The position numbers were made by a program, and so were the translations under genes. Shown here piece by piece: positions 10,658-55,381 of a stretch of 64,000 nucleotides of DNA; position 1 is the first letter of the stretch, and each line of letters starts with the position of its first letter. The DNA is taken from the IMG/VR virus record IMGVR_UViG_3300017991_000052; one strand, 5' to 3'. Source of the stretch: a virus. The notes beneath the pieces are model-generated. The model was not told where the DNA came from and did no database searches. It was given only the letters and a program-made list of their open reading frames with translations.

Positions 10658-10995
10658 AAAAAAGAATTAGAAAAGAAAAAGATGTTTTTATTCTTCTTAA
10701 TGAAGATTATGCAAAAAGCATAAAAAAAATAATCAATAAAAAAATTAGACAATCTAATAGAACCTTAAGAAGAGATAGATTTTATCATGAAGAATTAAAT
10801 GAATTAATAGATAATAGAAAGTGGTCTTGGTTAAGAGAACGAAGAGTGACTCCGGAATATGATGGAGAATCTGTTAGTAGAGCACATAGAAGAATGTATG
10901 TACATGGGATAAATGATATTTTAAAGTGGTTAACAAATCAAATAGCATCTGATAAAGATATTGATGTTATTTCAATAAAAAACGAATCATTATAA
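10654..10995 (+). CDS. Hypothetical; C-terminal tag IKNESL
   Basis: ends ISIKNESL. Confidence 0.7.
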   Translation: MKKRIRKEKDVFILLNEDYAKSIKKIINKKIRQSNRTLRRDRFYHEELNELIDNRKWSWLRERRVTPEYDGESVSRAHRRMYVHGINDILKWLTNQIASDKDIDVISIKNESL

Positions 10996-21426: not shown

Positions 21427-21642
21427 ATGGCGAATGTACGTTTCTACAGACTAGGCGGAGATCCAGTTGACACAGAAATCACAGAGAAGATGACAGTTAG
21501 AGCAGCACTGAAAAAGAGTGGAATCAAGTACCAAGAAGGTGATGAAATCCGGGTACAGAACAGCAAAGTTGATTTAGACACAATGATCACTCCTGATCAG
21601 GCACAGTTTGTTACTGCGATCCCGAAAGTACGAGGAGGTTAA
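21427..21642 (+). CDS. Ubiquitin-like (beta-grasp) protein with C-terminal GG
   Basis: 71 aa, TVRAAL, ends IPKVRGG; first gene of E2/JAB/E1 cluster. Confidence 0.85.
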   Translation: MANVRFYRLGGDPVDTEITEKMTVRAALKKSGIKYQEGDEIRVQNSKVDLDTMITPDQAQFVTAIPKVRGG

Positions 21643-21648
21643 TGAGGG

Positions 21649-21700
21649 TAATATATTGGGGGGGGTGGAACCCTTATTAGCACACCCCCTTAATATATTA
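21649..21700 (+). terminator. Stem-loop between Ubl and E2 genes
   Basis: TAATATATT+G-run pairs with C-run+AATATATTA; may attenuate or stabilise the Ubl transcript. Confidence 0.5.
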
Positions 21701-21716
21701 TAAAAAGGAGAAAAAT

Positions 21717-22337
21717 ATGGCAGTAAAGTTAAGTGAAGCAAAAGAACAAGAAAAATATGTTGAAATTTGTGCAATGAGGCATAAAGTTCAAGTTAAAAAT
21801 CTTAAAGAGAAATTAAAAAAAATTGAAAAAGAAACTGCAGATGCTAGTAAGCAATTAATGCTGTTTGTCCGCGCGGAATCTGATACTAGAGAACAACTTA
21901 ACGCGCTCGAGGAAGGCTTTGAAAAACATAAAAATAGATATCAAGAAGAATTTAAAGCTTTAAAAGCTTTAGAGAATTATGAACATATTGATATAACTGA
22001 AATACATGGAAAAGCAGCTCTAATTGGTTATACAGATGAAATTCAAATTGAACATGAAGGCGATATTTATAAAATTGGTAAATTTAGAGTTACAGTTCAA
22101 GATGCACAAATTTTAATTGAAAATATAACTAATAAGAGAAATGGATGTGATCATCCTCATGTTAGAGATGGTCGACCGTGTCTTGGGGATTTAGGCTCAA
22201 CTTTACCAAAATTAATGGGTAAGCATGAATACGCTTTAGTTTTTAATGTTGTTTATAAATACTTAACAAGTTATAATAAGCAAAGTCCTTATCAAAAAAT
22301 TGAAGCTTGGACAAAAAGCAGAAAGAAGGCAAAGTAA
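21717..22337 (+). CDS. Prokaryotic E2-like conjugating enzyme with N-terminal coiled coil
   Basis: HPHVRDGRPCLG matches the E2 HPN..G.ICL catalytic-Cys motif. Confidence 0.75.
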   Translation: MAVKLSEAKEQEKYVEICAMRHKVQVKNLKEKLKKIEKETADASKQLMLFVRAESDTREQLNALEEGFEKHKNRYQEEFKALKALENYEHIDITEIHGKAALIGYTDEIQIEHEGDIYKIGKFRVTVQDAQILIENITNKRNGCDHPHVRDGRPCLGDLGSTLPKLMGKHEYALVFNVVYKYLTSYNKQSPYQKIEAWTKSRKKAK

Positions 22338-22900
22338 TGTTACAAGTTATTTTTAAAGAAAAGGCTATTAAAAAAATTGAATATTTTACCCAATTGGCTC
22401 CAGGAGAAATTTCTGGATTAGGTAAAGTAGAAAAACAAGGTGATAAATTTATTATTGAAGATGTTTACTTACTTAAACAAACAAATTCTGCAGCTTATAC
22501 AGAATTAGATTCTGAAGCAATTAATGATTTTCTTATTGATATGATGAGTAAAGGAGAAGATCTTTCTAAGATAAAGTTATGGTGGCATACTCATGCTAAT
22601 TTTTCTGTTTTTTGGAGTGGGACAGACAAAGATACAATAGATAAATTTGCAAATGAATCTTATTTTATTTCTTTAGTAACAAACAAAGCTGGAGATTATA
22701 AAATTAGATTTGATTTTCACGCACCGGATAGACTGACATTTGATGATATTCCTCATGTAGTAGATTTTACAGATGATAATGATCTAAAAAGACAATGTGA
22801 AGAAGAATTTAATCAAAAAGTTAAAACTAGATTATATTGGGATGAACAGCCGCAATATGTTGAAAATAATGAACAAGAAATTGTGGAGCATGTAGTATAG
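22337..22900 (+). CDS. JAB/MPN metallo-isopeptidase
   Basis: GEISG; WWHTHANFSVFWSGTD (HxH..S..D). Confidence 0.85.
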   Translation: MLQVIFKEKAIKKIEYFTQLAPGEISGLGKVEKQGDKFIIEDVYLLKQTNSAAYTELDSEAINDFLIDMMSKGEDLSKIKLWWHTHANFSVFWSGTDKDTIDKFANESYFISLVTNKAGDYKIRFDFHAPDRLTFDDIPHVVDFTDDNDLKRQCEEEFNQKVKTRLYWDEQPQYVENNEQEIVEHVV

Positions 22901-22918: not shown

Positions 22919-23584
22919 ATGTCAGATGCACAAAGATTTTGGAGACAATTAGATATTGTCGATAGTGATAAATTAAATATCCCAATTACTATTATTGGAG
23001 CCGGCGCAATTGGATCATTTACTTGTTTAGCATTAGCTAAAATGGGATGTTCTAATATTACAGTATATGATATTGATAAAATTGAAGATTATAATCTACC
23101 AAATCAATTTTATAGAGAAAGTGATGTTGGTAAATTAAAAGTAAATGGGCTTTATGATCTTATAAAAGATTTTACTGGAGTTAAAATAAATATTAAAAAT
23201 GAAAAATATAAAAAACAAAATGTTGAAGGAATAGTTATATCTGCAGTTGATAATATGGAAACAAGAAAAGATTTATGGAAAAAAGTTGAATATAATCCTC
23301 AAGTAAAATTATTTGTAGATGGACGCATGGGCGCAGAAGTCATGAGAATTTATACTGTAAAACCTCATGATATAGATGAAGTAAAGATATTTGAAGATAA
23401 TTTATATACCGATAAAGAAGCTGCAGAAGAAAAATGTACAGAAAAAGCAATTATATATAATGTAACTGTAATAGGAGGTTTAATTGCTTCTAATATTAAG
23501 AAATATGTAATGGATCAAAAATATATAAAAGAAATAATATTTGATTTAAAAAATCTATATTTATTAGCGAGTGAAACAAAATAA
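22919..23584 (+). CDS. ThiF/E1-like activating enzyme
   Basis: RFWRQ, IIGAGAIGS, YDID..NLPNQ, AVDN..R, DGRMG, candidate Cys in EKCTEK. Confidence 0.9.
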   Translation: MSDAQRFWRQLDIVDSDKLNIPITIIGAGAIGSFTCLALAKMGCSNITVYDIDKIEDYNLPNQFYRESDVGKLKVNGLYDLIKDFTGVKINIKNEKYKKQNVEGIVISAVDNMETRKDLWKKVEYNPQVKLFVDGRMGAEVMRIYTVKPHDIDEVKIFEDNLYTDKEAAEEKCTEKAIIYNVTVIGGLIASNIKKYVMDQKYIKEIIFDLKNLYLLASETK

Positions 23585-23918
23585 TGTTATGTCTAAAAAT
23601 AAAAAACTTGATAATGTATTACTTGAAATAGCGAAAAAAAAGGAGCTAATTGCAAAGATAAACACAATTAATTATAATAGTTTTGAGAAAGATGCTTCTA
23701 AAGTTATAGATATTCTTCCTCAATTGACTAATAATGATGATTTTAAAGTATTAAATGTGTTTAATGTTGATAAAAAAGTACAGTATAAAAAATATAGCTT
23801 ATATAAGAAATTTAATATATTTATGTATATTGAAGGATTTAAAAGGGCTTTAGAAATAATGGGTGAAACTTTTATTAGTGATGCAATAAAAGATGATTTA
23901 TATGAACAATCAATATGA
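23571..23918 (+). CDS. Hypothetical; C-terminal tag LYEQSI
   Basis: Between E1 and clpC, overlapping neighbours. Confidence 0.65.
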   Translation: MKQNNVMSKNKKLDNVLLEIAKKKELIAKINTINYNSFEKDASKVIDILPQLTNNDDFKVLNVFNVDKKVQYKKYSLYKKFNIFMYIEGFKRALEIMGETFISDAIKDDLYEQSI

Positions 23919-24184
23919 GTGATTATGTAATTGGGATTTTAAGTAATGAATTAGATAAATTAAAAACAATAGCATCACGACTTGAGGGCGAATTAACAGA
24001 ACATGAAGTATATGCTAATCAAACGAGGGATAGTTTAATATTAATAAGGCAAGCTATTAAAGAAATTGAAGATGAATTAAAAGGAGAATATATAGAACTT
24101 AACGAAGGAGTATCACCGATATCGTTACTTAAAATAAGTGAAATTATAAGAAAAGAAAATAATATATCGGAGGAAAGTTTATGA
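23915..24184 (+). CDS. Coiled-coil protein; C-terminal tag ISEESL
   Basis: ATGA overlap with clpC start. Confidence 0.7.
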   Translation: MSDYVIGILSNELDKLKTIASRLEGELTEHEVYANQTRDSLILIRQAIKEIEDELKGEYIELNEGVSPISLLKISEIIRKENNISEESL

Positions 24185-26712
24185 GTTTATGTCAAGAATG
24201 CGGTAGAAATGAAGCTCAATATACTGCAATTTTTAATGTTAATGGCCAAGATATTCAAAAGCCAGTATGTGAACAATGTTATAATAAACTTCAATTAAGT
24301 GTTGATGACGCCACAAAAGAAGTATATCATAAATTAAGCGAATCTACAAAATTAGTAATTTATTATGCTCGCAGACAAGCAAGAGAACGAAGACATAAAT
24401 TTGTTTTAAATGATCATTTAGTTTATGGTATAATTTTAGAGAATGGAACTGGATATTCGACATTAGAAAGTGCTGGAGCAAATGTTGACCAATTAAAAGG
24501 GCAAATTGATTGGGCTTTAAATTCAGTTACTGATCTAGTACCTAGAAATAGTGGAGAAGAGCCTCAATTATCAGATGAAATAAAAGGCACTTTAAAAAGA
24601 TCTCTTGAGATTATTAATAAAATAGAATTTCCAGAAATAGAACCTGAACACATATTATTATCTATTACAGAAGATAGAAATTCAGCAATATCTAAAAATT
24701 TAAAAAGAAATTTTAATATTGATACAATAAAACTTTTAAGAGAATTAGAATCTCAATTACCAGAGTCAGTAGATCTCGTTAAAAAATATAAAGAAAATGA
24801 TATTAAAAAATCTGCTTTAGAAAAATATAGTAGAGATTTAACTAAATTGGCTAAAATGGATAAACTAGATCCATGTATTGGTCGAGCAGATGAAATAGAA
24901 CGAGTTGTACATATACTATCAAGAAGAAGAAAAAATAATCCAGTGCTTGTAGGAGAAGCTGGAGTTGGTAAAACAGCTATTGTTGAAGGATTAGCAAGAA
25001 GAATTGTTGAAGCTGATGTACCAGCTTGTTTATTAACTAAAAGATTATTAGCTTTAGATTTAAATGCTATGTTAGCAGGAACTCGCTTTAGAGGTGAATT
25101 TGAAGAAAGAATTAAAAAAGTAATTGATGAAGTTAAAGCTAAAAGTGGAGAGATCATATTATTCATTGATGAATTACATAATTTAATTGGAGCTGGTGCT
25201 GGCGGCGGTCAAGGTATGGATGCTGCTAATATTTTAAAACCAGAACTTGCTCGCGGTGAATTACAATGTATTGGAGCAACAACTCATGATGAATATAGTA
25301 TGTATATTGAACATGATAAAGCTCTAGAAAGACGTTTTCAATTAGTTGAGGTTATTGAACCATCAGTTTCAGAAGCTAAACAAATATTACATGGAGTACA
25401 AGATCGTTATGCAAATTATCATCATGTTAAAATAAATAAAGATGCGATAGATGCTGCAGTTGATTTATCAGTTAAATATATTTCAAATAGATATTTACCC
25501 GATAAAGCAATTGATCTTATGGACGAAGCAGGAGCAAAAGTAAAATTAACAGCTCAAAAATTACCTAAAGAAATAATTGAATTAAAGAAAGAAATAATTA
25601 AAAGTAAAAGAGAAAAAAAAGATGTTACTAAACAAGAAGTTGAAGCTAAAAAGTTAATGGATGAATGGAGAGAAAAAAATAATAAATTATCTCTTATAGT
25701 TAATAAAAATGATATTGCTATGGTAGTAAGTAAATGGACAAAGATACCAGTAACAGATTTAATAAAAGAAGAAAAAATAAAATTATTGCATTTAGAAGAT
25801 AAATTACATGAAAAAGTTGTTGGTCAAGATCAAGCAATTAAATCTTTATGTAATGCTATAAGAAGAGCAAGAGTTGGGATTAAAGATCCCAAAAGACCAA
25901 TTGGTTCTTTCATATTTGCTGGTAAGACTGGTGTAGGTAAAACATTAATAGCTAGAACTCTTGCTGAATACTTATTTGGGTCACCAGAACACTTTATAAA
26001 GATCGATATGTCTGAATATATGGAGAAACATACAGTATCAAGATTAATTGGCGCTCCGCCTGGATATGTAGGTTATGATCAAGGTGGACAATTAGTTGAA
26101 CATGTAAGAAAACATCCTTATACAGTTATATTATTAGATGAAGTAGAAAAAGCTCATCCAGATATATTTAATGTTCTTTTACAAGTTATGGAAGATGGTG
26201 TATTAACAGATGGAAGGGCAAGAAAAGCAGATTGTAGAAATGCTATTATAATTATGACTACAAATATTAGTGCAACTCAAAGAGATTATCATATTGGATT
26301 TAATAGTACAAACATTGAAACAGAAGAAGAATATGAGAAATTAAAATCTACTCAAGAAAAGGCTTTAAAAAATCATTTTAAACCTGAATTTTTAAATCGT
26401 GTAGATGATATTATTGTATTTCATAACCTTAATAAAACTCATATGACTTATATAGTTGATTTAATGATCAAAGAATTGGCAGAAAGAATGAAAGAACAAG
26501 AATTGAAATTACAAATTAATAAAGAAGTAAAAGAATTATTAGTAAAAGAAGGCTTTAATAAAGAATATGGAGCAAGATCTTTAAGAAGATATATAGTAAA
26601 GAAAATTGAAAATCCTTTGGCTGAAGAATTGTTAACTGATAAATTTAAGCCAAAAGATACAATTATTGTTAAAAAAGAAAAAGAAGATATTCTATTTGAT
26701 ATAGAAAAATAA
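24181..26712 (+). CDS. clpC: ClpC-type AAA+ unfoldase with N-terminal CxxC...CxxC finger
   Basis: Clp-N repeats, GEAGVGKT, FIDELH, GKTGVGKT, LLDEVEKAH, IGF loop. Confidence 0.92.
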   Translation: MSLCQECGRNEAQYTAIFNVNGQDIQKPVCEQCYNKLQLSVDDATKEVYHKLSESTKLVIYYARRQARERRHKFVLNDHLVYGIILENGTGYSTLESAGANVDQLKGQIDWALNSVTDLVPRNSGEEPQLSDEIKGTLKRSLEIINKIEFPEIEPEHILLSITEDRNSAISKNLKRNFNIDTIKLLRELESQLPESVDLVKKYKENDIKKSALEKYSRDLTKLAKMDKLDPCIGRADEIERVVHILSRRRKNNPVLVGEAGVGKTAIVEGLARRIVEADVPACLLTKRLLALDLNAMLAGTRFRGEFEERIKKVIDEVKAKSGEIILFIDELHNLIGAGAGGGQGMDAANILKPELARGELQCIGATTHDEYSMYIEHDKALERRFQLVEVIEPSVSEAKQILHGVQDRYANYHHVKINKDAIDAAVDLSVKYISNRYLPDKAIDLMDEAGAKVKLTAQKLPKEIIELKKEIIKSKREKKDVTKQEVEAKKLMDEWREKNNKLSLIVNKNDIAMVVSKWTKIPVTDLIKEEKIKLLHLEDKLHEKVVGQDQAIKSLCNAIRRARVGIKDPKRPIGSFIFAGKTGVGKTLIARTLAEYLFGSPEHFIKIDMSEYMEKHTVSRLIGAPPGYVGYDQGGQLVEHVRKHPYTVILLDEVEKAHPDIFNVLLQVMEDGVLTDGRARKADCRNAIIIMTTNISATQRDYHIGFNSTNIETEEEYEKLKSTQEKALKNHFKPEFLNRVDDIIVFHNLNKTHMTYIVDLMIKELAERMKEQELKLQINKEVKELLVKEGFNKEYGARSLRRYIVKKIENPLAEELLTDKFKPKDTIIVKKEKEDILFDIEK

Positions 26713-26845
26713 AATAATCATAGATGATTTAGCAATATCAATAAACCACAATAATGGTGACAAACATACCAATATTTTAATACCTTTCATTGCTAGTTTT
26801 ACTGATGTTTATAAAAAAGATAGAACTTATCATTTTGATGTCAAT

Positions 26846-26974
26846 ATGATCAATGGAGAAAATCACACTATTGGAGGAAGAAATAAACAGGATATTGAAG
26901 ATTCTCATAAATATTTAGTAAAAAGATTAAGAAAATATTATGAGTCTAAAATATTTTTTGAACAAACTTTATGA
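26846..26974 (+). CDS. Small ORF after clpC ending in tag variant FFEQTL (frame open from 26705; true start uncertain)
   Basis: ATGA overlap with 26971; ends SKIFFEQTL. Confidence 0.5.
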   Translation: MINGENHTIGGRNKQDIEDSHKYLVKRLRKYYESKIFFEQTL

Positions 26975-30130: not shown

Positions 30131-30376
30131 ATGCCTGTAATAGAAAAAGTTAAAAGAGTTATGAATATTTTAAATTATAAAGGCCATTCAGAACTTGAAT
30201 GGGATGCTAATAATGAAATTGAAATTAAAAATATGGAAAAGAAATTTGAAGAAATGATTGATAAAGGTTATACTGCATTTAAAGTAGATCCTAAAACAAA
30301 AGAATCTAAAAAAATCACAAAATTTGATCCATTAGCTGAAGAAATAACAATGACTCCGCCTGCACGAAAGGGGTAA
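30131..30376 (+). CDS. Small protein, possible second Ubl-like modifier (ends PPARKG)
   Basis: 81 aa, beta-rich, FDPLAEEITMTPPARKG; own promoter; ThiF gene downstream. Confidence 0.4.
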   Translation: MPVIEKVKRVMNILNYKGHSELEWDANNEIEIKNMEKKFEEMIDKGYTAFKVDPKTKESKKITKFDPLAEEITMTPPARKG

Positions 30377-30379
30377 GTA

Positions 30380-31234
30380 ATGGCAGCTTCAGTTTGTGCC
30401 GCTGAAGATAGAGGTACTTATACTCAATTATATTGGGAAGATACAAATACTAATTCTACTGCAAATTGGATTTGTGGGTCAACTGAAGATTTAACTTCTA
30501 CTGGAACTTATACTGGCAATACTATGCGTTTTTATTCTACAGGAAGTTCTACTACATGGGCAGGTGTGGATTGGACAGGGGATACTACAACATCAGCAAC
30601 AGGATATATTACTTTTAATACTTATGATTATGATTTACATGATGAACATTATTATGTTTATGCTAATGGGGAATTAATAAAAACAAAGAATGAAATTGTT
30701 ACTGAAGATTCTATTGAGGAGATTATTAAAGAAAAACGTAGACAGAAATGGATACAACAATTAAGAGAAAAACGACTTACCATTAAACTGCAAAAAGCTG
30801 AGAATAGAGGATTAACTTTATTAGAAAGATTAATTGATCAACAACAAGTAAAAAGTTATTTAGAAAAGGGATATATAGATATTAATAGTCTTGATAATAC
30901 AAAAGTTTATAGAATATTTAAAGATGATAGTCAATTTATCAAAGTATACGAGAAAAAACCACAACTTGTTGTATCAAAAAATATAAAAGAAGCATTAACT
31001 ACAGCTCAAAAAATGAAAAAAATGGATGAGTTTGTTCTTAATGGCGAAACATTTATATTAAAAAGAACTGTATGTACCCATCATCGAAATCAACAAGAAA
31101 TACCACAAGTTGATGCAGTTATTTCTAAAATAATTCATTTAAGATCTAATATGCAATTAAAAGATTTTGGAAATGTGTATGAAAAAGGTGAATTAACTTG
31201 TGCTCAAAATGAACCAATAAGGATAGCCGCATAA
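30380..31234 (+). CDS. Hypothetical with Thr/Ser/Gly-rich N-terminus and C-terminal CxH-containing domain
   Basis: ORF track; VCTHH...P.VD motif. Confidence 0.6.
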   Translation: MAASVCAAEDRGTYTQLYWEDTNTNSTANWICGSTEDLTSTGTYTGNTMRFYSTGSSTTWAGVDWTGDTTTSATGYITFNTYDYDLHDEHYYVYANGELIKTKNEIVTEDSIEEIIKEKRRQKWIQQLREKRLTIKLQKAENRGLTLLERLIDQQQVKSYLEKGYIDINSLDNTKVYRIFKDDSQFIKVYEKKPQLVVSKNIKEALTTAQKMKKMDEFVLNGETFILKRTVCTHHRNQQEIPQVDAVISKIIHLRSNMQLKDFGNVYEKGELTCAQNEPIRIAA

Positions 31235-32112: not shown

Positions 32113-32841
32113 ATGAAAAGATTTGATCAAAATCTTAAAACAAAGTTGATCGGCAATAAAGGACAACTTAAGCTAAATAAGGCCAAAGTTTGTTTAGTTG
32201 GTCTAGGCGGCACAGGTTGTCCTATTTTTGTCTATTTACATAATGCTGGTGTAGAAAATATTTGTTCAGTCGATGATGATAGGGTTGAAGAATCAAATTT
32301 AAATAGACAGTTTATATATAATGAAGATGATGTTGGGAATAAAAAAGTAGATGTTATTCTTGAAAAATATGGTCATAATATGAAATTCGATGGAAAATCT
32401 ATGAAAGGACAAATAAGCGTAGTTGAAAATAGTTTTCAAGGATGGTTAGAATTTTTAAAAAAACATGATGAAAATCCTCCAAAATTTGATTTAATAATAG
32501 AAGCAACTGATAACTTTGAGACAAAAAAAGCGGTGCAAGAATTTGCTTTCAAACAAAGTATTCCATGTTTAATATGTGGAGTTCATGGCTATCAAATAAA
32601 TATGTTTGCATGGCATCCTAAATATTCTAAAAATAGATATGCAGATTTAATTAATTGTGATGACAATATATCTGAAAAATCAGAAGGAACATTTCCTACA
32701 GCTACTGGAATACTTGGAACTCTTGTTGCAAATGAAGCCATAAAAATATTATTAGAATTACATGAGAAAGTAATTTATAATAGAATATGGTTTTATGATA
32801 TTCTTCATAATCAATTAAAAGATCTTAAAATTTCAGTTTAA
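32113..32841 (+). CDS. Second ThiF/MoeB (E1-like) enzyme
   Basis: VCLVGLGGTG, VDDDRVEESNLNRQ, EATDNF; CxxC pairs absent. Confidence 0.9.
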   Translation: MKRFDQNLKTKLIGNKGQLKLNKAKVCLVGLGGTGCPIFVYLHNAGVENICSVDDDRVEESNLNRQFIYNEDDVGNKKVDVILEKYGHNMKFDGKSMKGQISVVENSFQGWLEFLKKHDENPPKFDLIIEATDNFETKKAVQEFAFKQSIPCLICGVHGYQINMFAWHPKYSKNRYADLINCDDNISEKSEGTFPTATGILGTLVANEAIKILLELHEKVIYNRIWFYDILHNQLKDLKISV

Positions 32842-34975: not shown

Positions 34976-35374
34976 ATGAAACATTTTGAAACAAATAAAT
35001 TACATATAAAAAGTTGGTGTAACGAACCAGAAGAAGGGGCATTAAAACAAGCTGAGAATTTAGCTCAATTGCCATTTGCTTTTCATCATATTGCTTTAAT
35101 GCCTGACACCCATCAAGGATATGGTATGCCAATTGGTGGAGTATTAGCTACAGAAGGAGTAGTTGTTCCAAATGCTGTAGGGGTAGATATTTTTTGTTCA
35201 GTTAGTGCATTAAAAACAAACATAAAAGCATCAGATTTATCTGTGGAAAAATTAAAAGAAATAATGGGAGAAATAAGAAAGCAAGTTCCTTTTGGTGAAG
35301 GTAATTACCCAGAGTATGATAAAGAAATTGGAGAATATTTAGAAAATTTAGAAAAAGAGATGAATAATGAGTAA
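34976..35374 (+). CDS. rtcB: RtcB RNA ligase, N-terminal fragment
   Basis: ALMPDTHQGYGMPIGGV..VPNAVGVDIFC. Confidence 0.9.
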   Translation: MKHFETNKLHIKSWCNEPEEGALKQAENLAQLPFAFHHIALMPDTHQGYGMPIGGVLATEGVVVPNAVGVDIFCSVSALKTNIKASDLSVEKLKEIMGEIRKQVPFGEGNYPEYDKEIGEYLENLEKEMNNE

Positions 35375-36122
35375 ATATAAATTAAATAAAAGATGTATAA
35401 AATGTAATAAATTACTTTTAGATAAAAATAAAAGTGGCTTTTGTAATTCTCATAGAGATAGAACTGGATCAAATAATTCATTTTTCGGGAAACATCATTC
35501 AAAAGAAACAATTGATGGAATAAAGGCAAAGAATCGTAAAAAAAGTAAAGAAAATTGGAAAAAAAAAGAATATAGAGATAAAGTTATAAAAGGCACATCT
35601 AAACCAAGAAAAGAATCTTTTAAGAAAGAACAAAGCGATAGAATAAAATTGTGGTACAAAGATAATCCAAAACAAAAAGATATTCGTTCAATACATATGA
35701 AAAAGTCTTGGAAAAATGGATTAATTCCTAAAAGTAAACACACACAAATGAATAAAAGTAAAATACAAAATGAATTTTTTAATGACATTAAAGATATTTA
35801 TCCATTTGTTAGTGATAATACAACAATAAAATACGACAGTAAATGGTTATTCCCAGATATTTCTATTATTAAAGATGGAATTATTGTAGAGTTTTTAGGT
35901 GACTATTGGCATGCAAATCCAAATAAATATAAAGAAAATGATATTGTTCATCACGAACTAACAGCATTGGAAATTTGGAAAAATGATGAAAGAAGAAAAT
36001 CAACTTTTGAGAGACTTGGGTTTTTTGTTTATACTGTTTGGGAAAGTGATTATAAGAAAGACAAAAGGCATGTATTGAATACATTTGATTCAATTTTAAA
36101 TTGGGAAGGATGTTCTATATGA
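35367..36122 (+). mobile_element. Free-standing homing endonuclease (NUMOD3-like plus Vsr/DUF559-like nuclease) inserted in rtcB
   Basis: GSNNSFFGKHHSKET; FPD...VEFLGDYWH...D..R...LGF.VYTVWESD. Confidence 0.8.
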
Positions 36123-42321: not shown

Positions 42322-42828
42322 GTGCCAAGACAATTAAAAATAGATGAATTAAATATAGGCAAGCAAGTATTACAATTATATAATAATGGTATGAGTGCTA
42401 ATAAGATCGCGGAACAATTAAATGTAAATCCAATAAATGTAATTAATTTTATAGAGAAGACAGATGAGAATACACAGAAATTGGTAAAACGAGAGGATAA
42501 GATGGCTAAAGAGAATCTTATGCAGGCTCTTAATCTTCATGAGAAGATGATCGAGAAGATCGAGGATATGGAAGAGTTATTAACTCAGATGAAGGAAGCT
42601 GATGGTAAGGTAGTCGAGCGCAGATCTAAAGATTATATATCCGCATGGAATAGTATAATGAGTACGCTTCAATGGTGGACTGACAGAAAGATAAAGTTAT
42701 TAGAGACTATGGAGAATCAGATCTTTAGAAATGCTATCCTCGAGGCGATCAAGGGGGAGTCGCCCGAGGTGGCATCCAAGATAAGGTCTATAATAGAGCA
42801 GAAGAGAAAAGATCTTGGATTAATATGA
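42322..42828 (+). CDS. HTH plus helical protein (small-terminase-like architecture possible)
   Basis: LYNNGMSANKIAEQLNV HTH; helical remainder. Confidence 0.45.
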   Translation: MPRQLKIDELNIGKQVLQLYNNGMSANKIAEQLNVNPINVINFIEKTDENTQKLVKREDKMAKENLMQALNLHEKMIEKIEDMEELLTQMKEADGKVVERRSKDYISAWNSIMSTLQWWTDRKIKLLETMENQIFRNAILEAIKGESPEVASKIRSIIEQKRKDLGLI

Positions 42829-43647
42829 TATATAAAATAAAAGATGATGAGTATTATAGGGGGCTCAAAGAGACATGGGATTGGGAATATGATAGATTAT
42901 ACAATTGGGAAAGATTAAGAAGCTATGAGGTAAAGGATGAGAGTCTCTAAGATAAAGTCGTATGAAGGAAGAGTATTAATAAAGAAAGAAAAGATAATAG
43001 ATTGTTGGGGGTGCCCCCATATAGAACACGAAACGGGTAATAGATTTTATACATGTAAAATAACTGGTAAAGTGATACACAGATGGAAAGCTAAAGATGA
43101 TTGCAAAACATGGGGGTCAAATGAAATACATGTATTTATTCCTAAGACATGTCCTTTACCAAAAGAAATAGAAGATGAGAGTGTATGAAAATTGAACATG
43201 CAAACCCCCTAAGTATTTATGATGAGCTTAATCATTGGAAGCTTCAATATGAGATGACTGCTAAAGAAAGAAATGAATTAGAATTAAAAGTAGCCGCATT
43301 TCAAGATAGATATTATGAAGTATGTTATGAGTTAAGGAAATATGTAAGTGATTATAAATTTAAATATTGGGATGAAGCTTCTTATAGGGCATGGTTAAAT
43401 AGAGATATGGAAATAAATATAAATGAAGAAAGCATATGAATGAAACAATTATTATATCCCCAACAGAAGCTGAAGCATTAAAGAGTTATGCATCTTTTCG
43501 ATCTTCGGCATTAAGAGTTGGCAGAATAGAAAATGAAATAGGAAGTTTATATGGAGTAAAAGTGATAGTAAGCAGATATATTGGGGATCAAGTAGTGGAT
43601 ACTAAAATGCATGATTTTAATATAGTGAATGAAAGTATATAAGAGTA

Positions 43648-43676
43648 TTTATGAAGAATAAAAAATATGATATAAT
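43648..43676 (+). promoter_or_regulatory. Sigma70-like promoter, extended -10
   Basis: TTTATG-N17(TG)-TATAAT. Confidence 0.55.
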
Positions 43677-44338
43677 ATAACGATGCTAAGTCACGAAGAA
43701 GTGGTACTACGGTACTTTAATAAATTAGTATATAAATTAGATCATATTTTAAAAGATGGAGATAGTTCTACATATAAAACTGTAATGAGAGCTTTTATGA
43801 GATGCCATGGAGAATCATGGACTGAAACACAAGAATTCCTAAAAAATACAACTATCACAGATCAAAGTATATAAGGGGGAATAAATATGGGGAAGAAAAA
43901 AGATGTGTCAAAGCTATTTGCCAATGCTTTCACAAAGTATGATCAGATTCAAGGACAGCCTGCACATATACAAGCTAATATGCCAACAAAAATAATGGAA
44001 GAAAGTGAAGCTTTAATGAAAGCTCATCAAAGTCGTTTATATCCAGAAAAAGCAGGTAAAAGAGTAAGAGATGAAAAATTAGCGGCTGAAGAACAATTCA
44101 GACAATTCATAAGATCATTGACGATCGATGAAGTAGAGAACTTAAAACTATTAAGAAGTAAGCCAAGCTTAGTTGTCGATACAAATGCTTTACAGAAAGC
44201 AGGAGAATTAGGGGAAGATCTTGGGCTTGAAAGATTAGAAGCAAATAAGCTTATTAAGAGAGAATTAATTCCCGATGATAATCTTATAGAGTTCAGAATA
44301 ACTAATAAAGGCAGAGCGGTATTGGAGGAATTGAGATT

Positions 44339-44941
44339 ATGAGGAAATTGCCCCCTCAAAATAAGATAATTAGATTATTAAACTTTACTGAAGATCAGAA
44401 GAATAGAGTACGTAATGCTTTAAGTAAAGTACCACCGCAATTCGTAAAGAAAGCTTTTTCAAAAATAGTTTTAGATGGAGCTTTAGCTAAAGAACCAGGG
44501 AAGCACGAGAATTTTGGTAAATATAATATGGATACTAAAGTATTAAGAGTGAACCCCAAAGTATTCGATCAATCAGAGAAATTCACCGATGGAGTAAATT
44601 ATATGAGTAAGTTAGCTCATATGTTATTACATGAAATTGGGCATGCTTTAGATAATATTTATAATTTATCTAATTCTGAAGTATGGCATAGTTTAAGTGG
44701 ATGGTCGACGACTCCTTCTCATTCAAAAAGATATTTGAAGATCCCCCATGAAAAAGATAGAGATATGTTATGGTATTATAATCCAAAAAGCAAATTCGCA
44801 AGATGGTATGCAAAAAGATCCCCTCAAGATGATTGGGCAGAATCATTTGCATTTTATCTTGGGGGTCTGCTTGATAGAGTAGACAGAAGTAAGATCAAAT
44901 ATATAAAAGAAGTATTATCTCAAATAAATGATATTAGTTAG
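44339..44941 (+). CDS. Zincin HExxH metallopeptidase
   Basis: LLHEIGHALD...YA..SPQDDWAESFAFY. Confidence 0.75.
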   Translation: MRKLPPQNKIIRLLNFTEDQKNRVRNALSKVPPQFVKKAFSKIVLDGALAKEPGKHENFGKYNMDTKVLRVNPKVFDQSEKFTDGVNYMSKLAHMLLHEIGHALDNIYNLSNSEVWHSLSGWSTTPSHSKRYLKIPHEKDRDMLWYYNPKSKFARWYAKRSPQDDWAESFAFYLGGLLDRVDRSKIKYIKEVLSQINDIS

Positions 44942-45611
44942 AAAATGTAATGAATTAATTAAAGATGAGATAATAGAAGATGCAATGATAATGCTTGAAA
45001 AAGCAGAAGATTGTAAGATAAATAAAACTAAGTTAATATTTTTTGCGGGAAGTACGATACAAAAGAAATTAAAAGAAGAATGTCGACGACAAAATATGGC
45101 AATTGCGAGTTCTACAGCAGTAGTATATTATGATGAGAATGAGATATTTAGAGTTGCTGGAGTAAAGATAATAAAGGGGTATGAGGAATATTTAGGGCTT
45201 GATGAATTGTGTCTTGTAGATGAGTTATGTGTCAGCGGAATGGGTAATAAAGATATAAGACTAGCGAGGTATTATGTGGCCGATGAATCTCTTTAGATTT
45301 AGAGCTAATGAAGAAGAGGAAGAAGATATAGAGTTGTCAGAAGAAGAACTCGCGAGAATAGATGAGGATATGAATGATGCTCCAAGAGAACTTTATTATC
45401 GAGATGAGCAAGCACCGCAAGGTGGGACAGGAGAAGTAGAGTTGGATAATACATATCCAGATACTGCTGATAATTATAGAAGCGATTCAATAGAGATGTT
45501 AAATACGAAAGTAGACAGTCTAGAAATTTCAGTTGCTGAAATACATTGTCAATTAATGCGACTTGTAGAACTATTAGATAAATGCGGGATAGGAGTCCCC
45601 AATGAAAGTTT

Positions 45612-45860
45612 ATGAATAGTTGGGAAAAAGAATTTATGAAGGAGAGTCAAGGCAAAGGAATACTTCCCTGTCCTTTTTGTAAAAGTACAAGAGTAATAGA
45701 AGAGCCTTTGAATTGGATGATCTTAAGAAAACGACCGCATCAGTGTCAAGTAAGATGTTTAGATTGTAGAGCTCATGGACCAATTATGAAGGGATATCAA
45801 AGAGACGCGATATGGGCATGGAATAGTGCTTATCGAAGAATAGAGGATGAAAGTTTATAA
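45612..45860 (+). CDS. Lar-like (restriction alleviation) Zn-finger protein; tag IEDESL
   Basis: LPCPFCKS...VRCLDCRAHGP...AIWAWN. Confidence 0.7.
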   Translation: MNSWEKEFMKESQGKGILPCPFCKSTRVIEEPLNWMILRKRPHQCQVRCLDCRAHGPIMKGYQRDAIWAWNSAYRRIEDESL

Positions 45861-46565
45861 GGAGGTAAAGTAATGAAAGATAGAGTAGAAATAGTAAGAA
45901 ATAATGGGGTTGTATTTAATTCAGAGAATACTATAATAAGAATAAACGGGAGACAAGTAAATGGAGTAACACACTTCGCTATATATGATAGTTCTAATAG
46001 GGCAGATGCTGATAGGGGTCCGTACGCGGATCCCCATTTATTTATTACAGCGCGGTTAGGGGCTAATGATCGACCATTAAAACATTTCTTTAATCCAGAC
46101 AATATAGATTTTGATAACATAGTAATGTATGATCGCAATCATGTCGAGAATAGAAATATAGGGAGAGGGCAAGAAGATAATACATATATTGAATCAATAA
46201 GAGTCCATAAAAGAAATATAAGATTAGACTTAAAGATGAAAACGGAAGTTCAAGAAGAATTATTTGCGGAGAGTATATAATGGCATTTGCATATGGTAAT
46301 GGACAAATATTAGGGCATGCTATTGGGAACATTGTTGAAGGTGATGCTGTAGAGGTATCATTAGACGAGAATGGACTTATAAGGACTATTAGTATTGGAT
46401 CAGGAGGAGCTGGAGGTGGAGGATCTGGAGCTGGTGGTGCTGCATATGTAAGCATAGAAGAGTTAGAGAATAACGCAAAAGAAAGGGCAGAAAAATACTT
46501 TAATAATATGAATAAAAGTGTTATAATATCTGATGATATTAAAGATAAACAAGTGAAGGTGTTAG

Positions 46566-46739
46566 ATGAACCCCTTTAATTTTAAAAAGAGTTCATATGG
46601 ATATGAGTGGAAGATCATTACTCAGTACTTCAAATTCCCGAAGCGCAAAAAGAAGCGTAAGAAAAGAAAAGTGGTTCATAAGCCAGCTATAGTAAAGAAA
46701 TATAGTAAGCGATTTGAGATATTAGACGAAACAATATGA
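46566..46739 (+). CDS. Basic 57-aa protein (not in track); tag variant ILDETI
   Basis: MNPFNFK...KRFEILDETI; ATGA overlap with 46736. Confidence 0.65.
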   Translation: MNPFNFKKSSYGYEWKIITQYFKFPKRKKKRKKRKVVHKPAIVKKYSKRFEILDETI

Positions 46740-49254
46740 AGATACAGCTTGCAATTAGTTTATCTGATATATCAATGTATCTTTATTGGATATGTATAGG
46801 GCTTTATTGTTGGATGATATTTAAAGAGCGAAAGAATCGTAAAAAAGAAAGAGAATTTATTGCACAAATACAAAGGGATACTCAAAGGCGAATGGAAGAG
46901 TTTATAAAAGCAGAAAAAGAATTCCAAAGGAAATTAAAAGTAAAAACATTACAAGTTGAATATTATAAGAAAAAATGCAAACATGAAATAGTTAATGAAA
47001 GTTTATAATGGAGGGGTTTTTTACTGCTGAAAATATCAGCAATTTATTAAACATAAGTCTTTTATTGTGGATATTTATTTTAGCAGCAAAGTTAGGATAT
47101 ACTTTATATGAGGCTAGTAAAGAAGAACGCAATGAGAGAAATAGAATATTGGAAGCCCGAATTTTTGCATCAATGCATCCGAATGGGGAACTTCGTAAAT
47201 ATATACATGTCAAGAAGAAGGGAAAGAAAAGAAGAAAAAAGAAAATTAAGATCAATGTAAAGAAGTCGTTATACAAAGAAAAAGACGAAGTGGAGATAAT
47301 GAATGAATCTCTCTGAAGGAGCAGTAAATGTATTAATAATATTCTCTGGTACTATAAGCGCTGTTGTGATATGTGTGATAGCAATGTGGTTAGGAAGATG
47401 GTTAGCTGATAGAGAAGATCGACAATTTATGATGACTACTACATCGACTGCTATTGGGGATCTTCATAATGATCGAATAAGTAGGGAACAAATGGAAAGT
47501 GAAATGGTTCGAGCAAGGGAAGAGATGAGAAGGGCTCATGAAGAGCAAAGACAAATGATGCATGAAACGCGCAGACAAATGTATCTTTATAATGAATCGC
47601 TTCAATCACAACAAAGAGCAGCAATTAGTCCAAGGATTGCAGAGGCACAACAAATAAATAGAACTGCGTTATTGGAAGCGGTTGGAGCAAATATAAATAT
47701 AGATGATATGCGATCTGCATTAGAAAGTTTAGAAAGAAGTTTAAGTTTACCAGATATAATAGCATCAAAGCCATCTAAAAAAGAAATCGAGAAAAAGATA
47801 AATAAGTATGAGTTACAAGATGAGAGTATATGATATTAAAAAAGATACAATTATTAAAAAAAATATATAGGAAGAAGCTTAATAATCTTGATGAGAAAAA
47901 AGAATTGTCTTTACAAGATGCGAAAGAGATAATTGATATATTAGAAAATGATTTAAATGATCAAGTTAATGAAGAAGCAAAATATACAGAGCATGAAGTA
48001 ATGATGGAGAGTATATGACAAAATATACAAAAGAAGATTTGCCAAGAATAGCTTATGGTTCAAGAGAGATAACGATAACAAGGGCCGATTATGCTAATTT
48101 ATTACATACCATTGTTCAATTATTACATTTACATAAATTTAACGGTGAAGGTCAATTGGAAATAAAATATAGAGCAGATAATTTTTTAGATTCTGGTCTT
48201 ACTTTATTAAGTAAAACAAAACCAATTTATGAAAGTATATGATATATTGGAAGATTCCCCCACAAAAAGAAATAATGGTTAAATCAGATAAGATGCTTAT
48301 TCATTTAGAAGAAATAACATTAGATGTACCCAAAGATATTTTATTAAAGGTTGGTGATAGATATATAAAAGCTAAGCAATTAACGGAAGTGAGGGAAGTA
48401 AATGAATAATGATCCAATATTTGATTTAATTGAGACTGAGGTGGAAATACCTATAGATGATTATTTTAAGAAATGGAAAGAGTTACATTTAACTGATGTG
48501 GCTGAATGGTGCAACAATCAAAAAGATGATTTTACTGATGTATTATCATTCTTTACAGAACATTATCGTTTAGAGAGAATGATGGCATCATTAAAAGAAT
48601 TGGAGATCATAGATGAAAGTATTTAAAAGAATAGTTGAGCGTAAAATGACTGTATTACATTCTGATGTTGCAATGTTATTTTTGTTATTAAGATTATTTG
48701 AGGTATTTGATACACCTTATGATAAGTTGATATTTATAATACTTCTTATTTTCTTTTAATATGGCTATAGAAGTACGCTATGTGAATATTAAAAATTTAA
48801 ATGTAAGTAATGCTGCTTTTGTACGACAAGATAGTAATGGGAGAATGATACGTTTAGATAATGACCCCACTACTATTTATTTAGATCTATCATTATCATT
48901 AGAGACAAGAGATGATATTAATTGTATTGATCTTACAAAAAGAATACATGATATATTAAGAAATTATTTGAATAAAGAACAAATTGGGGGAATTGAAATT
49001 GAGGAAGAAAGTTTGTAGAACCTGTGTAATTTTCGGAGTTATAGTTATATTATTGTGGGTAGGATGTGGTAAGACTTCTAAGGAAGTTGGTATCGACACA
49101 CCAGATAGATTATTGGAAGATTTTCCAACTAAAGATATTGTATATGAGAGAATAACTGAAGATATTACAGAAGATAAAGATCAAAAAGAAAAAAAGGAAA
49201 AGCCAACTAAAGATGAAAAAGGAAAAGATAAGAAAAATAAATGAGAGTGATTAT

Positions 49255-49377
49255 ATGCCAGAATCTCCAATATCATCGCAATCGATGTTGAATATTGTGA
49301 GAGCAGTAAATACTCTCATAGATGAAAGAGATAAAAGAATAGTAGATTATTATGAAGTAGAAGATGAGTCATTATGA
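49255..49377 (+). CDS. 40-aa protein (not in track); tag VEDESL
   Basis: MPESPISSQ...DYYEVEDESL; ATGA overlap with 49374. Confidence 0.65.
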   Translation: MPESPISSQSMLNIVRAVNTLIDERDKRIVDYYEVEDESL

Positions 49378-49658
49378 ATAAAATAAGATTATTAAAAAGA
49401 TTAAGAGAAAAGACGGGGCTCGGGTTAAAAGATGCTAAAGACATTATTGATGATCTATTTGAGTGTGTTGATGGGGATAATAAATTAACCCCTCAATATG
49501 TTGATATGATTGTGGAAAATCATAATCATCTTCAAGCATTAGCACGCGATATAAATGATGTTGAAAGACAATTAAAGAGATTAACATCAAAGATGAAGCT
49601 TCTTACATCACATATAAGAAACGGGAGATCATTAATAATAGAGAATGAAAGTATGTAA
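49374..49658 (+). CDS. Ribosomal L7/L12 C-terminal-like domain plus coiled coil; tag IENESM
   Basis: KIRLLKRLREKTGLGLKDAKDIID. Confidence 0.7.
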   Translation: MNKIRLLKRLREKTGLGLKDAKDIIDDLFECVDGDNKLTPQYVDMIVENHNHLQALARDINDVERQLKRLTSKMKLLTSHIRNGRSLIIENESM

Positions 49659-52600
49659 GAAATAAGGGGGCGCAGCTATGCATATTAGTAAAAATGATAT
49701 TGAATTATTACGCGAAGAATATGAGAGAGAAAAGAATATATTAGAACAAAGAGAATCTCTTAATAGAGAATTATATGATCTAGAAAAGATTAGATCTTTT
49801 AATCCCCTATCTGAAAATGCTTCTTATTTATATGCTGATAATAATACTGGGGTAGATGAGAATGCATGGAGAAATTTAAGAGAAGAATTAGAGAGATATC
49901 GACAAGATAATCAAGTAACTCCGTGGCGATCCCCAACAGATGTACCTTATAATCCTTATACTCCCCAAACTCCAGTAACCCCATGGGAAGAAGGTTATGG
50001 ACGAACAGTAATAACAAAATCAACAGATGAATTAATATTAGAAGAGCTTGCATCTATTAGAAAATTATTAGAAAAAATCGCTGAAGGATTTGATGTAAAA
50101 ATAAGAGATGAATCATTATGAGTTCAAATGATATTGGGGAATATATGCTTGCAAATAATAGTAGTGATATAACTATTAATCTCCCTTATGATCCTGAGAT
50201 AAATAATTTAAGAGTTAATTATATGCAAACACCACCGCAAAATGGGAATTTGCATTATAATGAAAGTAATGGACAAATGGGAGTATGGACGGGACAAGAT
50301 TGGCAGCCATTAGAAAGTAATGGAAGTAGTGGAGGAACAACTAGTTTTACTTTATGGTCAGAATACGATGAGATCAAAAAAGAGATACAAGAATTAAAAT
50401 CTATGTTGAAGCAGGTGTTAGATCAGTGCGGCGTAATAATAAAGGACGAGTCCCTGTAAAAAGAAGACGTAAGATCTGGGTAGGATGGTGGGTCTTATTT
50501 TGGTCAATCTTTTTTACTATATTAATATTAATAATAATAAATGTCTTAACTAGTACATTAGTGATGACAATAAGAAAACATTATGTATTGAATATAACGA
50601 CTGAATCAGAATCTTCTTTATTGGCGATACATGGGCGCATCGAAAAATTATCAATACATCAAATAGAATTACAAAATCAAATAACTAAATTACAAAGAAG
50701 AACTTATTATTTAGAAAGAAAAGTAAAAGATTATGAAAAAAGGTAGAATATATAGTGTAGATTCAGATGCTGATCTAATTATCTTTCAATTCGATAAAAT
50801 AGATGTACATACATTAGAATCTTTTAAGATAGCATTAAGAGCGATTATTCCTGAAAGGTTAAAGAACAAATTACTTTTTTTAGCTAATACAAAGTTTAAT
50901 TTATATCAGTTTAAAGAAGGAAAGTTTTTTAACGAAAGTTTATGAGATATATAGAAAAATATTCAAGTCATATACCAATTGATGGAGTAACCCTTAGAGA
51001 TATAAGACGGATGATAAGAGATGCGCGTAGAGAAGAGATAGATCGTTCTAAATTAGTATTTTGTTTAGGGTATGAACTAGAAGAAAGTATATCAGCATTG
51101 TTTGGATCTGGAACATTTACACAAAAACAATTAGGGATCCCAGAGCCGCCATTGCCTTATCAAGTTGGGGCAATATGGGGAATAGCAGTAACTCAACCTC
51201 CCAATATAGATAATGATACTGTACTATTAACTAAATTAGAAGATTATTTAAGTGTCTACGGCAGTGAAAGTGTGCCTGATGAGAGTATATAATGAACGAA
51301 TTAAGTATAATGTATGGATGGGGGATCATCGAGAACAGATGTATTGGGAGAACCTTCCTAAAAAAGAAAAGTTATGGAGATGTTTTATTAACAGACTTCC
51401 AAAACATTCATTCCCTGATCTATCAATTTTAGAATTATTAATATTGGTACAAAGTTTAGAAGATCTAGATGAGCATATGGAATGGAAAGATATAGAAAAG
51501 CGAAAGGAGGAAAGGTATGACTCAAAAGCCATCGAAAGAAGAAGCAATAGGGAAAGCATTAGCGGCACTAGTTAATCTTTTTATAATATCTCCATTGTTA
51601 TTTATGTGGTTATACAACATGATATTAGTCCCTAAATTTAGCTTACCAAGATTCAGTTATTTAGAGTCTATGGGGCTCATTTTTATTTTCAGAACAATAC
51701 TTAAATAAAAGTTCAAAAATAGGGTAATAATTATATAAGTAGAAGAGGAGTGAAAGTAATGTCAGAAGCAAATATTGACATGCCTATCGAAAGACTTAGG
51801 CGTGCTGTAGTGAATCCAAGAAAGAAATTTTCAATTAGTATTGAACAAATGAGTGGTGGATTTTTAGTAATAAGTAAGTATGATAAGAAAAGATTTTGTA
51901 AGAATTTTACTGAAATAGTTAATGCAGTTAATGAAAGCTTGAGAGAATATTTTAAAAGTGAAGAGATCAAAGAAGGTGAAAGTATATGAGTTATAGTGAA
52001 CCAATGATGGATGAAGTGAGGGAAGCGGAACCAATGGAGCCAAGATGGAATACAGCTAGCGCATTCCCAGAAGATCGACCTAACTATAATAATTTTAATA
52101 TAAGAATAGAAAAAATAGAGAACGGATATTTATTAAATCCAAATTCTCACGATAGAGAATATTTTAATTCATTAGATACTCTATTTGAAGAAGCAAAATC
52201 GCGAGCAATAAATTCTTTTTTAAGAATCAACGATGGGTAGAACAGCAAGAAGAATGCATTTAGCTGATACAAGAGTTGAAGCTTCATCTGCACAACTTGC
52301 ATATATTGATTCAAATTTATTTACTAATGGGGATCTCAGTATTGTTAGTGATAATAATTTTTCTAGTAATTTAACTATTGATGCAGATGTCCTTATTAAA
52401 GGAAAAAAGCTTGATGATTATATATTAGAAGTTGTAAAGGAACATATGAAAGATTTATGTTTTACCAACATTTTGGACGAGAGCATTTAAATTATAGTGT
52501 TTTTACAGAGCTTGGAGAATGGCAAATTGGTAAAACAAAAGTCTTTCAAGATGTATATGATTGCTCGTTAACATATGAATTCGAATTTATATTAAATAAT

Positions 52601-52835
52601 ATAGATTTGAAGGTAAAAAATAGTGGTAATAGTTATAAATATGTAGGAAGAATGAAGGTAAATGAGGCTGATGTCATTACTTCCGACCGAAATCTTTCGG
52701 CTATAATAAGTGATACATTTTTAATGAATATGTATAAATTTAAGGAAGATATAGAAAACCAGGTATTTTATATAAAGAGTGATATGGTTTTCGAAAATAA
52801 ATTAAAAGAATACGGATTATTTATTGAAAGTATTT

Positions 52836-53797
52836 AGCCGAGGGAAAATTGAGACTCGACGGAGTTTCGTAGCTGTTGACGGGCAGCGATAAGGGTGTTA
52901 GCCAGACACTTGGGGAAAGTAAGTCATCTTGTGTTTTAAGCAAGAGATTTATTTTAGCGGAGTGAGAATATATGAGTTCTCGCGTGTAGGCAATACTTAA
53001 TTTTGACAATTTAATAACAACGGCTTGAGATCGCGGAGTGCAGACTCAATGTGATCAAATCCGCAGAACTGAAACTAATGTGGACAAGCTAGAGCCTCTA
53101 ACTAGGAAGAGGACAAAGTGTTTGGTAGTTTCGCTATAGAAAACTACCTCTCACTTAATGAGGTGCTTATCTACCATGTGTAGATAGAGCTTCAGACGAC
53201 TTTATTAGTGTGAAAGAATTTTTGCTAATTATAGATGCATTAATTCTTCAAATTAGATGAAGATGTCTGCAAAAGAGCTTAGGTTTCAATGAGCCCAGGT
53301 GCGATATAAAAGTTCAACTTATTGTCTTTATATAAAGTACAATTAGATTAACTGCTTAAATAGGGACGCCTAGCCTGTACTAATAATATCTTAATATGTT
53401 ATGGATTTAACCCTCCTGTCTGGGTAGCGAGGTTGGTAAGGGATCGGTCATAACATTTTGCGCTATCACGAAGTTTGACAATAACTAGTGACTGAACAAC
53501 TCGCTATGCAGGTGTAAGGTACATTTTGGACCATCGCCCTTGAGGTAACTCTTGGGAGAGAGATGGTTACCCAGGCCGATCCGGTGAGGGAAAAACAAAG
53601 TGGTTCCGTGGCCAATAGTAGCAATACTACGATTTTGACATTTGGATGATGTTGACAATTTAGATTACTACTGCAGACGGCCATCAAGTTGAAGGACCAT
53701 GTACTTGTACGTCTTGCTTGACCTTCGGATTCAATGGGGAGGAAGCTTTCTGTTGAAAAGGGGGGAATGGCGGTATGAGTATAATTCTTTCCTTTTT
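52836..53797 (+). ncRNA. Large (~900-950 nt) structured non-coding RNA candidate
   Basis: No credible ORF, raised GC, >12 nested hairpins including GNRA loops (see findings); boundaries approximate. Confidence 0.7.
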
Positions 53798-55171: not shown

Positions 55172-55381
55172 ATGAAAAGAAAGATACTGACTAATATTAA
55201 TATAGATTATCATTGCAGAAAAGATGATAAATTTTATTCGATAAGGCCTGATATTCCAGTAATTGTGCCTGATTATGTATGTGATTATTTATTAAATAAT
55301 TATAGAAACAATATGATATTGCTGGAAAAAAATTTGCGGGATATAAAAATAAAAGAAGAAATATACAATCAGAGTTTATAA
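55172..55381 (+). CDS. Hypothetical; tag IYNQSL
   Basis: ends EEIYNQSL. Confidence 0.6.
   Translation: MKRKILTNINIDYHCRKDDKFYSIRPDIPVIVPDYVCDYLLNNYRNNMILLEKNLRDIKIKEEIYNQSL

Follow-up and report, generated by a model that had tools for sequence, protein, structure and literature searches.

The DNA considered here (the window) comprises 64,000 nt of the virus record IMGVR_UViG_3300017991_000052, part of a large phage genome of low GC content (30%), and the longest of the contigs that also contain this sequence measures 180,493 bp; all genes of this phage lie on one strand, and 24 tRNAs are encoded. Our subject is a run of genes in the order Ubl (ubiquitin-like protein), E2, JAB, E1, orfA, orfB, clpC and orfC (Table 1), in which the gene of a ClpC/ClpE-type unfoldase is flanked by small genes sharing one short C-terminal tail, hereafter the tag, with the consensus [EG]-[IV]-x-[DNE]-E-S-[IL]-stop. 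The same run was compared in G001 (IMGVR_UViG_3300032046_000003), a complete syntenic relative of 178,280 bp with terminal repeats and myovirus-like sheath, terminase and major capsid protein (MCP) genes, and in the further related loci L125, L126 and a landfill phage (ClpC 59% identical to window ClpC); in all five, the Ubl operon and clpC occupy a single gene run.

The tail and its linkage to clpC

The tag ends 33 of the 141 window genes, against 0.38 expected from its internal frequency, and 22 of 277 genes in G001 (0.85 expected). Among frames of at least 40 aa in the window it is found in 33 of 185 on the plus strand and in 0 of 367 on the minus strand, the same control giving 2 of 1008 in G001. 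Because Ser is drawn from both codon families (TCN in 12 of 47 E-S-[ILVM] ends), each of the three stop codons occurs and an ATGA overlap with the neighbour is present in only about half of the tagged genes, selection acts on the peptide itself, as a free C-terminus on unrelated bodies; single-base neighbours of the AGT codon are rare. These large uncultured phages form a family in which dozens of unrelated small proteins carry one short tail (I-x-D-E-S-I/L). Since ATGA overlaps are nevertheless enriched (15 of 33 tagged against 20 of 108 untagged genes, P=0.003) and AGY codons over-used in the tags (22 of 28; genome usage 41%), the tag codons may have a further role in coupling, or may spread as pieces of DNA.

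Three tagged ends mark the clpC locus, at 23918 (LYEQSI), 24184 (ISEESL) and 26974 (FFEQTL), each stop forming an ATGA overlap with the next gene. An earlier note, made from the letters alone, had read the two open reading frames (ORFs) lying between E1 and clpC as tagged, together with the frame that follows clpC, which we confirm; ATGA overlaps, which it gave for the first two, are present at all three tagged stops, while the E1-orfA junction is a gap of 4 nt. For orfA, the start ATG 23589 is more probable than GTG 23571. A tagged orfB stands directly 5' of clpC in four lineages, namely the window, G001 (ITEESI), L126 (ITEQSI) and the landfill phage (KKDETL); the bodies of the last three are only 22-28% identical to window orfB, yet the tag is kept. 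In the window the EES codons of orfB include the GGAGG of clpC, and in the landfill phage, where a gap of 33 nt separates orfB from clpC so that the start is not overlapped, the DETL end is still retained. Should ClpC have a dedicated, ancestral partner, orfB is the foremost candidate. A complex prediction for orfB with ClpC residues 1-200 scored 0.00 and is counted neither for nor against.

The frame of orfC is open from 26705 to 26974 (89 codons) and has no ATG, GTG or TTG before 26846 (codon 45); gene callers miss it, and translation would start at ATA 26714 or 26720. Its codon score of 0.21 equals the small-gene median (off-frame 95th percentile, 0.07), and an alignment-based model (mean predicted local distance difference test, pLDDT, 81) contains a PH-like domain and a disordered tail, with weak matches in the PDB (best E=0.02). 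With homologs at the same position elsewhere, the codon score and the model make orfC coding-like, and on this evidence it is a gene, or one recently decayed. A ClpC-orfC fusion through a frameshift at the A-run before the stop was set aside, as the genes are separate in relatives. No Pfam or PHROG match, including to MecA profiles, was obtained for orfA, orfB or orfC, and Atlas searches with orfB and orfC gave no usable feature match.

Downstream of clpC, the landfill phage has three tandem small genes ending in FSQVL, FSEVL and LNQVL. Under a widened tag rule, 4 of its 29 gene ends fit, and these are orfB and the three genes after clpC; when a hidden Markov model of the three, built without their tails, was compared with 418 proteins, the top-ranking one was window orfC (E=8e-4; next 0.13). 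The gene after clpC in G001 encodes a different protein, ending in LFNENI, which we read as a tag variant because its 3' DNA has the promoter-like module of two other tag ends. Tags thus bracket clpC in three lineages (window, G001 and landfill phage), and outside the arrays clpC is the sole untagged gene so bracketed in both the window and G001. A related observation in G001 is that one and the same promoter-like module (TTCAAG, 11 nt, TGCATTATAAT) stands behind the tag or near-tag stops at 121643, 163138 and 169242 (in L120 and L122), which suggests that tag end and promoter move together, as mobile cassettes.

Within the window, the clustering of tags at clpC is modest, and borderline once the post hoc choice of gene is considered (P=2e-4 for a pre-named gene, P=0.05 for any such cluster). 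The earlier note had counted eight tagged ORFs outside the main array, a number that holds if DEAI (40375) is included and falls to seven by the strict rule. The relatives carry the support. In G030 (IMGVR_UViG_3300009941_000125; 113 kb, 73% complete), which belongs to the same family as G001 (MCP 71-79% and polymerase 59% identical) and whose missing part appears to fall in the tail module, there is no ClpC, no Ubl operon and a tag-like end on only 1 of 179 genes. At about 75 E1 loci of greater distance, many of which also have E2/JAB, no tagged neighbours were found; nor is any C-terminus enriched in G002, an unrelated phage (75% complete) in which E2/JAB/E1 occur with a distant fragment of Clp. 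Neither tag enrichment nor Ubl genes were seen at the 80 best-matching viral ClpC loci, which are not relatives (39-50% identity), and none of those with a readable N-terminus has a zinc finger. As distant E1 and Clp loci are untagged, the tag tracks the zinc-finger Clp clade in this sample, not the Ubl pathway generally. A scan of IMG/VR for a two-tag DNA pattern returned 25 matches, all by chance.

Table 1. Features of the clpC gene run and of the tagged genes discussed in the text (positions in the window).
Feature	Position	Strand	Remarks
Ubiquitin-like protein (Ubl)	21427..21642	+	71 aa, ends VRGG; orthologs 47-61% identical
E2-like protein	21717..22337	+	N-terminal coiled coil; HPH...PCLG motif, Cys155
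JAB/JAMM peptidase	22337..22900	+	Prok-JAB E=0.08; PADLOC JAB E=7e-4
E1/ThiF-family enzyme	22919..23584	+	Pfam ThiF E=8e-20; Cys173 conserved
orfA	23589..23918	+	109 aa, tag LYEQSI; ENA call
orfB	23915..24184	+	89 aa, probable coiled coil, tag ISEESL
ClpC/ClpE-type Hsp100	24181..26712	+	843 aa; Zn finger C4/C7/C30/C33, two Clp_N repeats, AAA1, M-domain, AAA2
orfC	26714..26974	+	about 86 aa, PH-like fold, free C-terminal tag FFEQTL; presumed non-canonical start
Main array	42825..52837	+	about 26 small genes with the tag; synteny with G001 4.4-11.8 kb
Tagged Lar-like restriction-alleviation protein	45612..45860	+	PHROG 599, E=2e-5
Tagged major capsid protein fragment	50942..51292	+	tagged ortholog in G001
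Tagged paralog of the N-terminal part of the gene that follows the capsid gene	55172..55381	+	

The Clp unfoldase and the ubiquitin-like genes

Residues 1-41 of the phage ClpC match the zinc domain of ClpE (29hb residues 1-41, profile E=7e-4), with C4, C7, C30 and C33 invariant. The Clp_N double repeat behind them is normal (model pLDDT 94.5; TM-score 0.79-0.92, by target, to the N-domains of ClpC, ClpA and ClpB). Together, zinc finger and Clp_N double repeat constitute a hybrid architecture; ClpE is not known to have such a double repeat. Walker motifs (A at 258 and B at 328 in AAA1, A at 581 and B at 651 in AAA2), pore loops and the IGF loop (at 705) are intact. With both AAA modules intact and an IGF/L loop present, the enzyme has the features of a class I, ClpP-partnering Clp ATPase, and its pairing with ClpP is predicted. 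Compared with that of Bacillus ClpC, the M-domain is shorter by about 16 residues, lacks F436 (QEVE in place of QEFE) and has a tip that is not conserved in relatives. In ClpC, F436 is needed for MecA binding and for the resting state, and its loss leads to adaptor-independent activity (PMC5699869). The suggestion of the earlier note that tagged proteins might be MecA-like adaptors was therefore imprecise, the tip required by MecA being absent.

The complete genome of G001 encodes no ClpP and no PDZ domain (PF00595), and its ClpC is the only clear AAA-family match; no relative of the zinc-finger/Clp_N region was found in GTDB genomes. Because the M-domain lacks F436 and complete G001 lacks ClpP, the phage ClpC may be an unfoldase free of host-type control that borrows the ClpP of its host. 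With ClpE (PDB 29hb; PMC13125188) it shares the four-Cys N-terminal zinc domain, two AAA modules and the ClpP loop; in ClpE the N-terminal domain sets substrate specificity without adaptors, and the phage enzyme has in addition a Clp_N double repeat of the ClpC/ClpA type and a shorter M-domain. The Clp_N domain, M-domain and ClpP loop are also common to the MecA-ClpC system (PMC5699869), from which the phage locus differs in the missing F436, the shorter M-domain and the absence of MecA profile matches among orfA, orfB and orfC.

The four genes upstream have a Bil-type layout, with a separate Ubl (Gly C-terminus), E2 (Cys), JAB and E1 (Cys), in which Ubl and E2 were assigned by motif, not by profile. 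The identification of E2 follows from its motif alone, with no Pfam or PADLOC match, and its His146 and Cys155 are invariant across four phages. PADLOC and NCBIfam gave generic JAB and E1 matches only, below the cut-offs, and none for Ubl or E2; a search of cultured phages gave no E2 match and merely generic ThiF matches. Known Bil operons (PMC11601603) have the same four components as separate genes in the order Ubl-E2-JAB-E1, with catalytic cysteines, but they are bacterial antiphage systems, whereas the operon described here is phage-encoded (alongside sheath, terminase and MCP) and joined to a Clp unfoldase. Bil conjugation is considered unlikely to be a degradation signal (PMC11601603). 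Ubl C-termini in relatives are GGIH, GGN and NGG; the orthologs at L113:9632-9853 (GGIH) and L110:3048-3266 (GGN) would need trimming by JAB, whereas the window Ubl already ends in GG. A G/C-rich hairpin lies between the Ubl and E2 genes (21642-21717). Elsewhere in the window, a second ThiF/E1-family gene (32113-32841) has no separate ortholog in G001, and at 30131-31234 a small protein ending in PARKG is accompanied by a 284-aa partner. This pair, possibly a second modifier-like system, recurs in G001 (245, 1317), G030 (65894, 64240) and G002 (22364, ending VKGG).

The tagged array and its bodies

Synteny of the main array with G001 holds, yet most tagged bodies cannot be aligned between the two genomes. 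Among 83 structural-region proteins, the capsid-fragment proteins of the window and of G001 match the phage's own MCP (E=2e-6 and 6e-8), and the match is reproduced against the capsid protein of G030. The 169 untagged small control proteins gave no capsid-protein match, their strong matches being to nuclease-type genes. Capsid fragments would have a plausible use because capsid-triggered immunity is known (CapRel; cited in PMC12409349). That tagged bodies serve as baits is a lead, for the capsid fragment, the Lar-like protein and the paralog of the gene after the capsid gene make up just 3 of the 33 tagged proteins in the window; a portal or tail-tube origin of the tagged bodies at 50733, 45873, 43436 and 44928 fell below significance.

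Other genes in and around the array deserve mention. An untagged zincin-like peptidase (HEIGH; 44339-44941), 41% identical in G001, lies inside it and has a distant homolog in the head region of G030 (E=9e-6). An Hsp20 gene, which G030 lacks, directly follows the array in the window (53699-54346) and in G001 (12502); between array and Hsp20, an 860-nt stretch without a long ORF (52837-53699) is possibly a structured RNA. A Fic-domain gene (9709-10995) is followed by two tagged genes, another tagged gene preceding its ortholog in G001, and a tagged Zn-ribbon/coiled-coil gene (4717-5022) keeps both tag and position in G001 (145945). The RtcB gene (34976-36967) is split in two by an endonuclease-like ORF and uninterrupted in G030. 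Tag-like ends also occur in G001 on a DUF932 protein (117966-118745) and on two homing-endonuclease-like genes (74192-74926 and 79414-80046), in the latter two perhaps by chance.

Candidate readers of the tail and their implications

We tentatively favour, at slightly below an even chance, the reading that the phage ClpC recognizes the tail and that the tagged proteins are adaptors, baits or timed substrates for ClpC acting with host ClpP. The tail would then be a portable peptide address, [EG]-[IV]-x-[DNE]-E-S-[IL]-COOH, read by the phage Clp unfoldase; it would bind most likely at the N-terminal zinc-finger/Clp_N region, and the unfoldase would dock on host ClpP via its IGF loop. Variable bodies (PH-like, coiled coil, capsid fragment, Lar-like) would bind host or phage targets that are thereby carried to ClpC-ClpP, and the co-located Ubl operon may feed the same machine, although it is probably not the reader of the tail. 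The version with adaptors or baits is possible, and the one in which the tail times the turnover of early proteins is distinctly unlikely. Several points weigh against recognition by ClpC. The downstream ends ENI (G001) and SQVL, SEVL and NQVL (landfill phage) fit only a rule widened after inspection, and all tag-positive genomes are kin, so that the bracketing partly reflects shared ancestry. L125 has no orfB, and its orfA ortholog, directly upstream of clpC (39% identity), ends in a degenerate VKGDTI. Tagged genes hold conserved positions away from clpC too, for example before 5032. The co-absence in G030 is a single event and does not single out ClpC, because 38 of the 49 genes common to the window and G001 are missing as well. 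Moreover, the tail could also be read by a host protease.

That last reading, in which the tail is a degron or docking tail for a host enzyme (ClpX-ClpP or a tail-specific protease) and its proximity to clpC is historical, is unlikely but has host ClpX as the main rival reader. In Streptococcus mutans a C-terminal ETV is a ClpX/P degron that needs ClpX's zinc-binding domain, with marginal dependence on ClpC (PMC10782952), and ETI, ETL, ESI and ESL, in which phage proteins end, resemble it closely; as G001 lacks ClpP and PDZ domains, the host supplies the peptidase either way. It leaves unexplained, however, why clpC is bracketed in three lineages with different downstream genes and why G030 is tagless. 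Recognition by another phage factor or compartment, with the flanks of clpC as mere variable insertion sites, seems improbable. The 38 genes that share ClpC's presence pattern would accommodate it, as would tagged genes adjoining Fic, HAD and replication genes and the cassette-like promoter module after three G001 tag ends; it is opposed by orfB, the stable tagged neighbour of clpC in four lineages. Because tagless G030 has homologs of both the zincin (44339) and the second small protein ending in RKG (30131), these were given less weight as readers.

The earlier note had named ClpC or the E1/E2 machinery as the best candidate reader. ClpC retains that place through the bracketing in three lineages, the conserved orfB and the co-absence in G030, whereas a reading of the tail by E1/E2, with tagged proteins as conjugation substrates or E3-like adaptors, is very unlikely. 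The Ubl genes do share the gene run of clpC in five phages or loci, and tag, ClpC and Ubl operon are missing together from G030, but E1/E2/JAB genes occur without the tag in G002 and at the approximately 75 E1 loci. In addition, the tags bracket clpC and not the Ubl genes, and E1 enzymes activate Gly-ending C-termini, not ends in S-I/L. Hsp20, which binds IxI/V motifs in a groove, might hold the first half of the tail. Its position after the array and its absence from G030 would suit such a role, and of 55 tags, 37 have I/V at position -6 and 27 a hydrophobic residue at -8 (P=0.009 for the latter), but a strict IxI/V occurs in only 8 of 55, and groove binding does not explain the best conserved part, the terminal E-S-I/L; we consider this hardly probable. 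Least credible is that the tag is a by-product of DNA signals, either a ribosome-binding site with ATGA coupling or a recombination/promoter module. The enriched overlaps and AGY codons and the GGAGG within the orfB tag speak for such signals, yet as sole cause they are largely refuted by the tagged genes without overlap, the persisting TCN serines, the other residues that end untagged ATGA genes and the landfill orfB, which has its DETL without an overlap.

Precedents exist both for phage adaptors of host ClpC and for C-terminal Clp degrons. Gp53 of phage SPO1 is an adaptor-like protein for host ClpCP (bioRxiv 10.1101/569657) and is likewise a small host-takeover protein that redirects the ClpC/ClpP protease, but it is a single protein acting on host ClpC, whereas the present phages have their own Clp ATPase and dozens of unrelated proteins with one tail. 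The ClpX/P degrons of S. mutans (ETV, VTL and AAL; PMC10782952) resemble the tag as short free C-terminal E-[ST]-aliphatic motifs, and there too a zinc-binding N-domain is the reader, the counterpart here being a candidate. The phage motif has seven residues, ends about a quarter of the window genes and occurs beside a two-AAA ClpC/E-type enzyme instead of ClpX. Tails of SspB-type adaptors also dock on ClpX's zinc-binding domain. In the literature searched, from which subscription papers were mostly absent, we found no description of this tail or of a phage Ubl-E2-JAB-E1-clpC operon, and no paper on a phage's own Clp ATPase with a repertoire of proteins sharing a tail.

Gene linkage in three lineages ties the tail to one specific candidate reader that can be purified, which makes the question testable. 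More speculatively, and somewhat doubtfully as a whole, the phages may possess a targeted-degradation platform, in which a viral Clp unfoldase freed from host-type regulation would work with a fast-evolving library of 20-35 adaptors, each joining a bait (capsid fragment, PH-like domain, Lar-like protein) to a constant 7-residue handle, and would hand sensors and regulators of host defence over to ClpP, possibly with the Ubl operon as a second, covalent input. If the adaptor reading is true, the tagged proteins would be a viral analogue of an E3-adaptor repertoire and represent a new counter-defence principle (bait and degrade), and tail and unfoldase would offer an orthogonal degron-unfoldase pair for bacterial synthetic biology.

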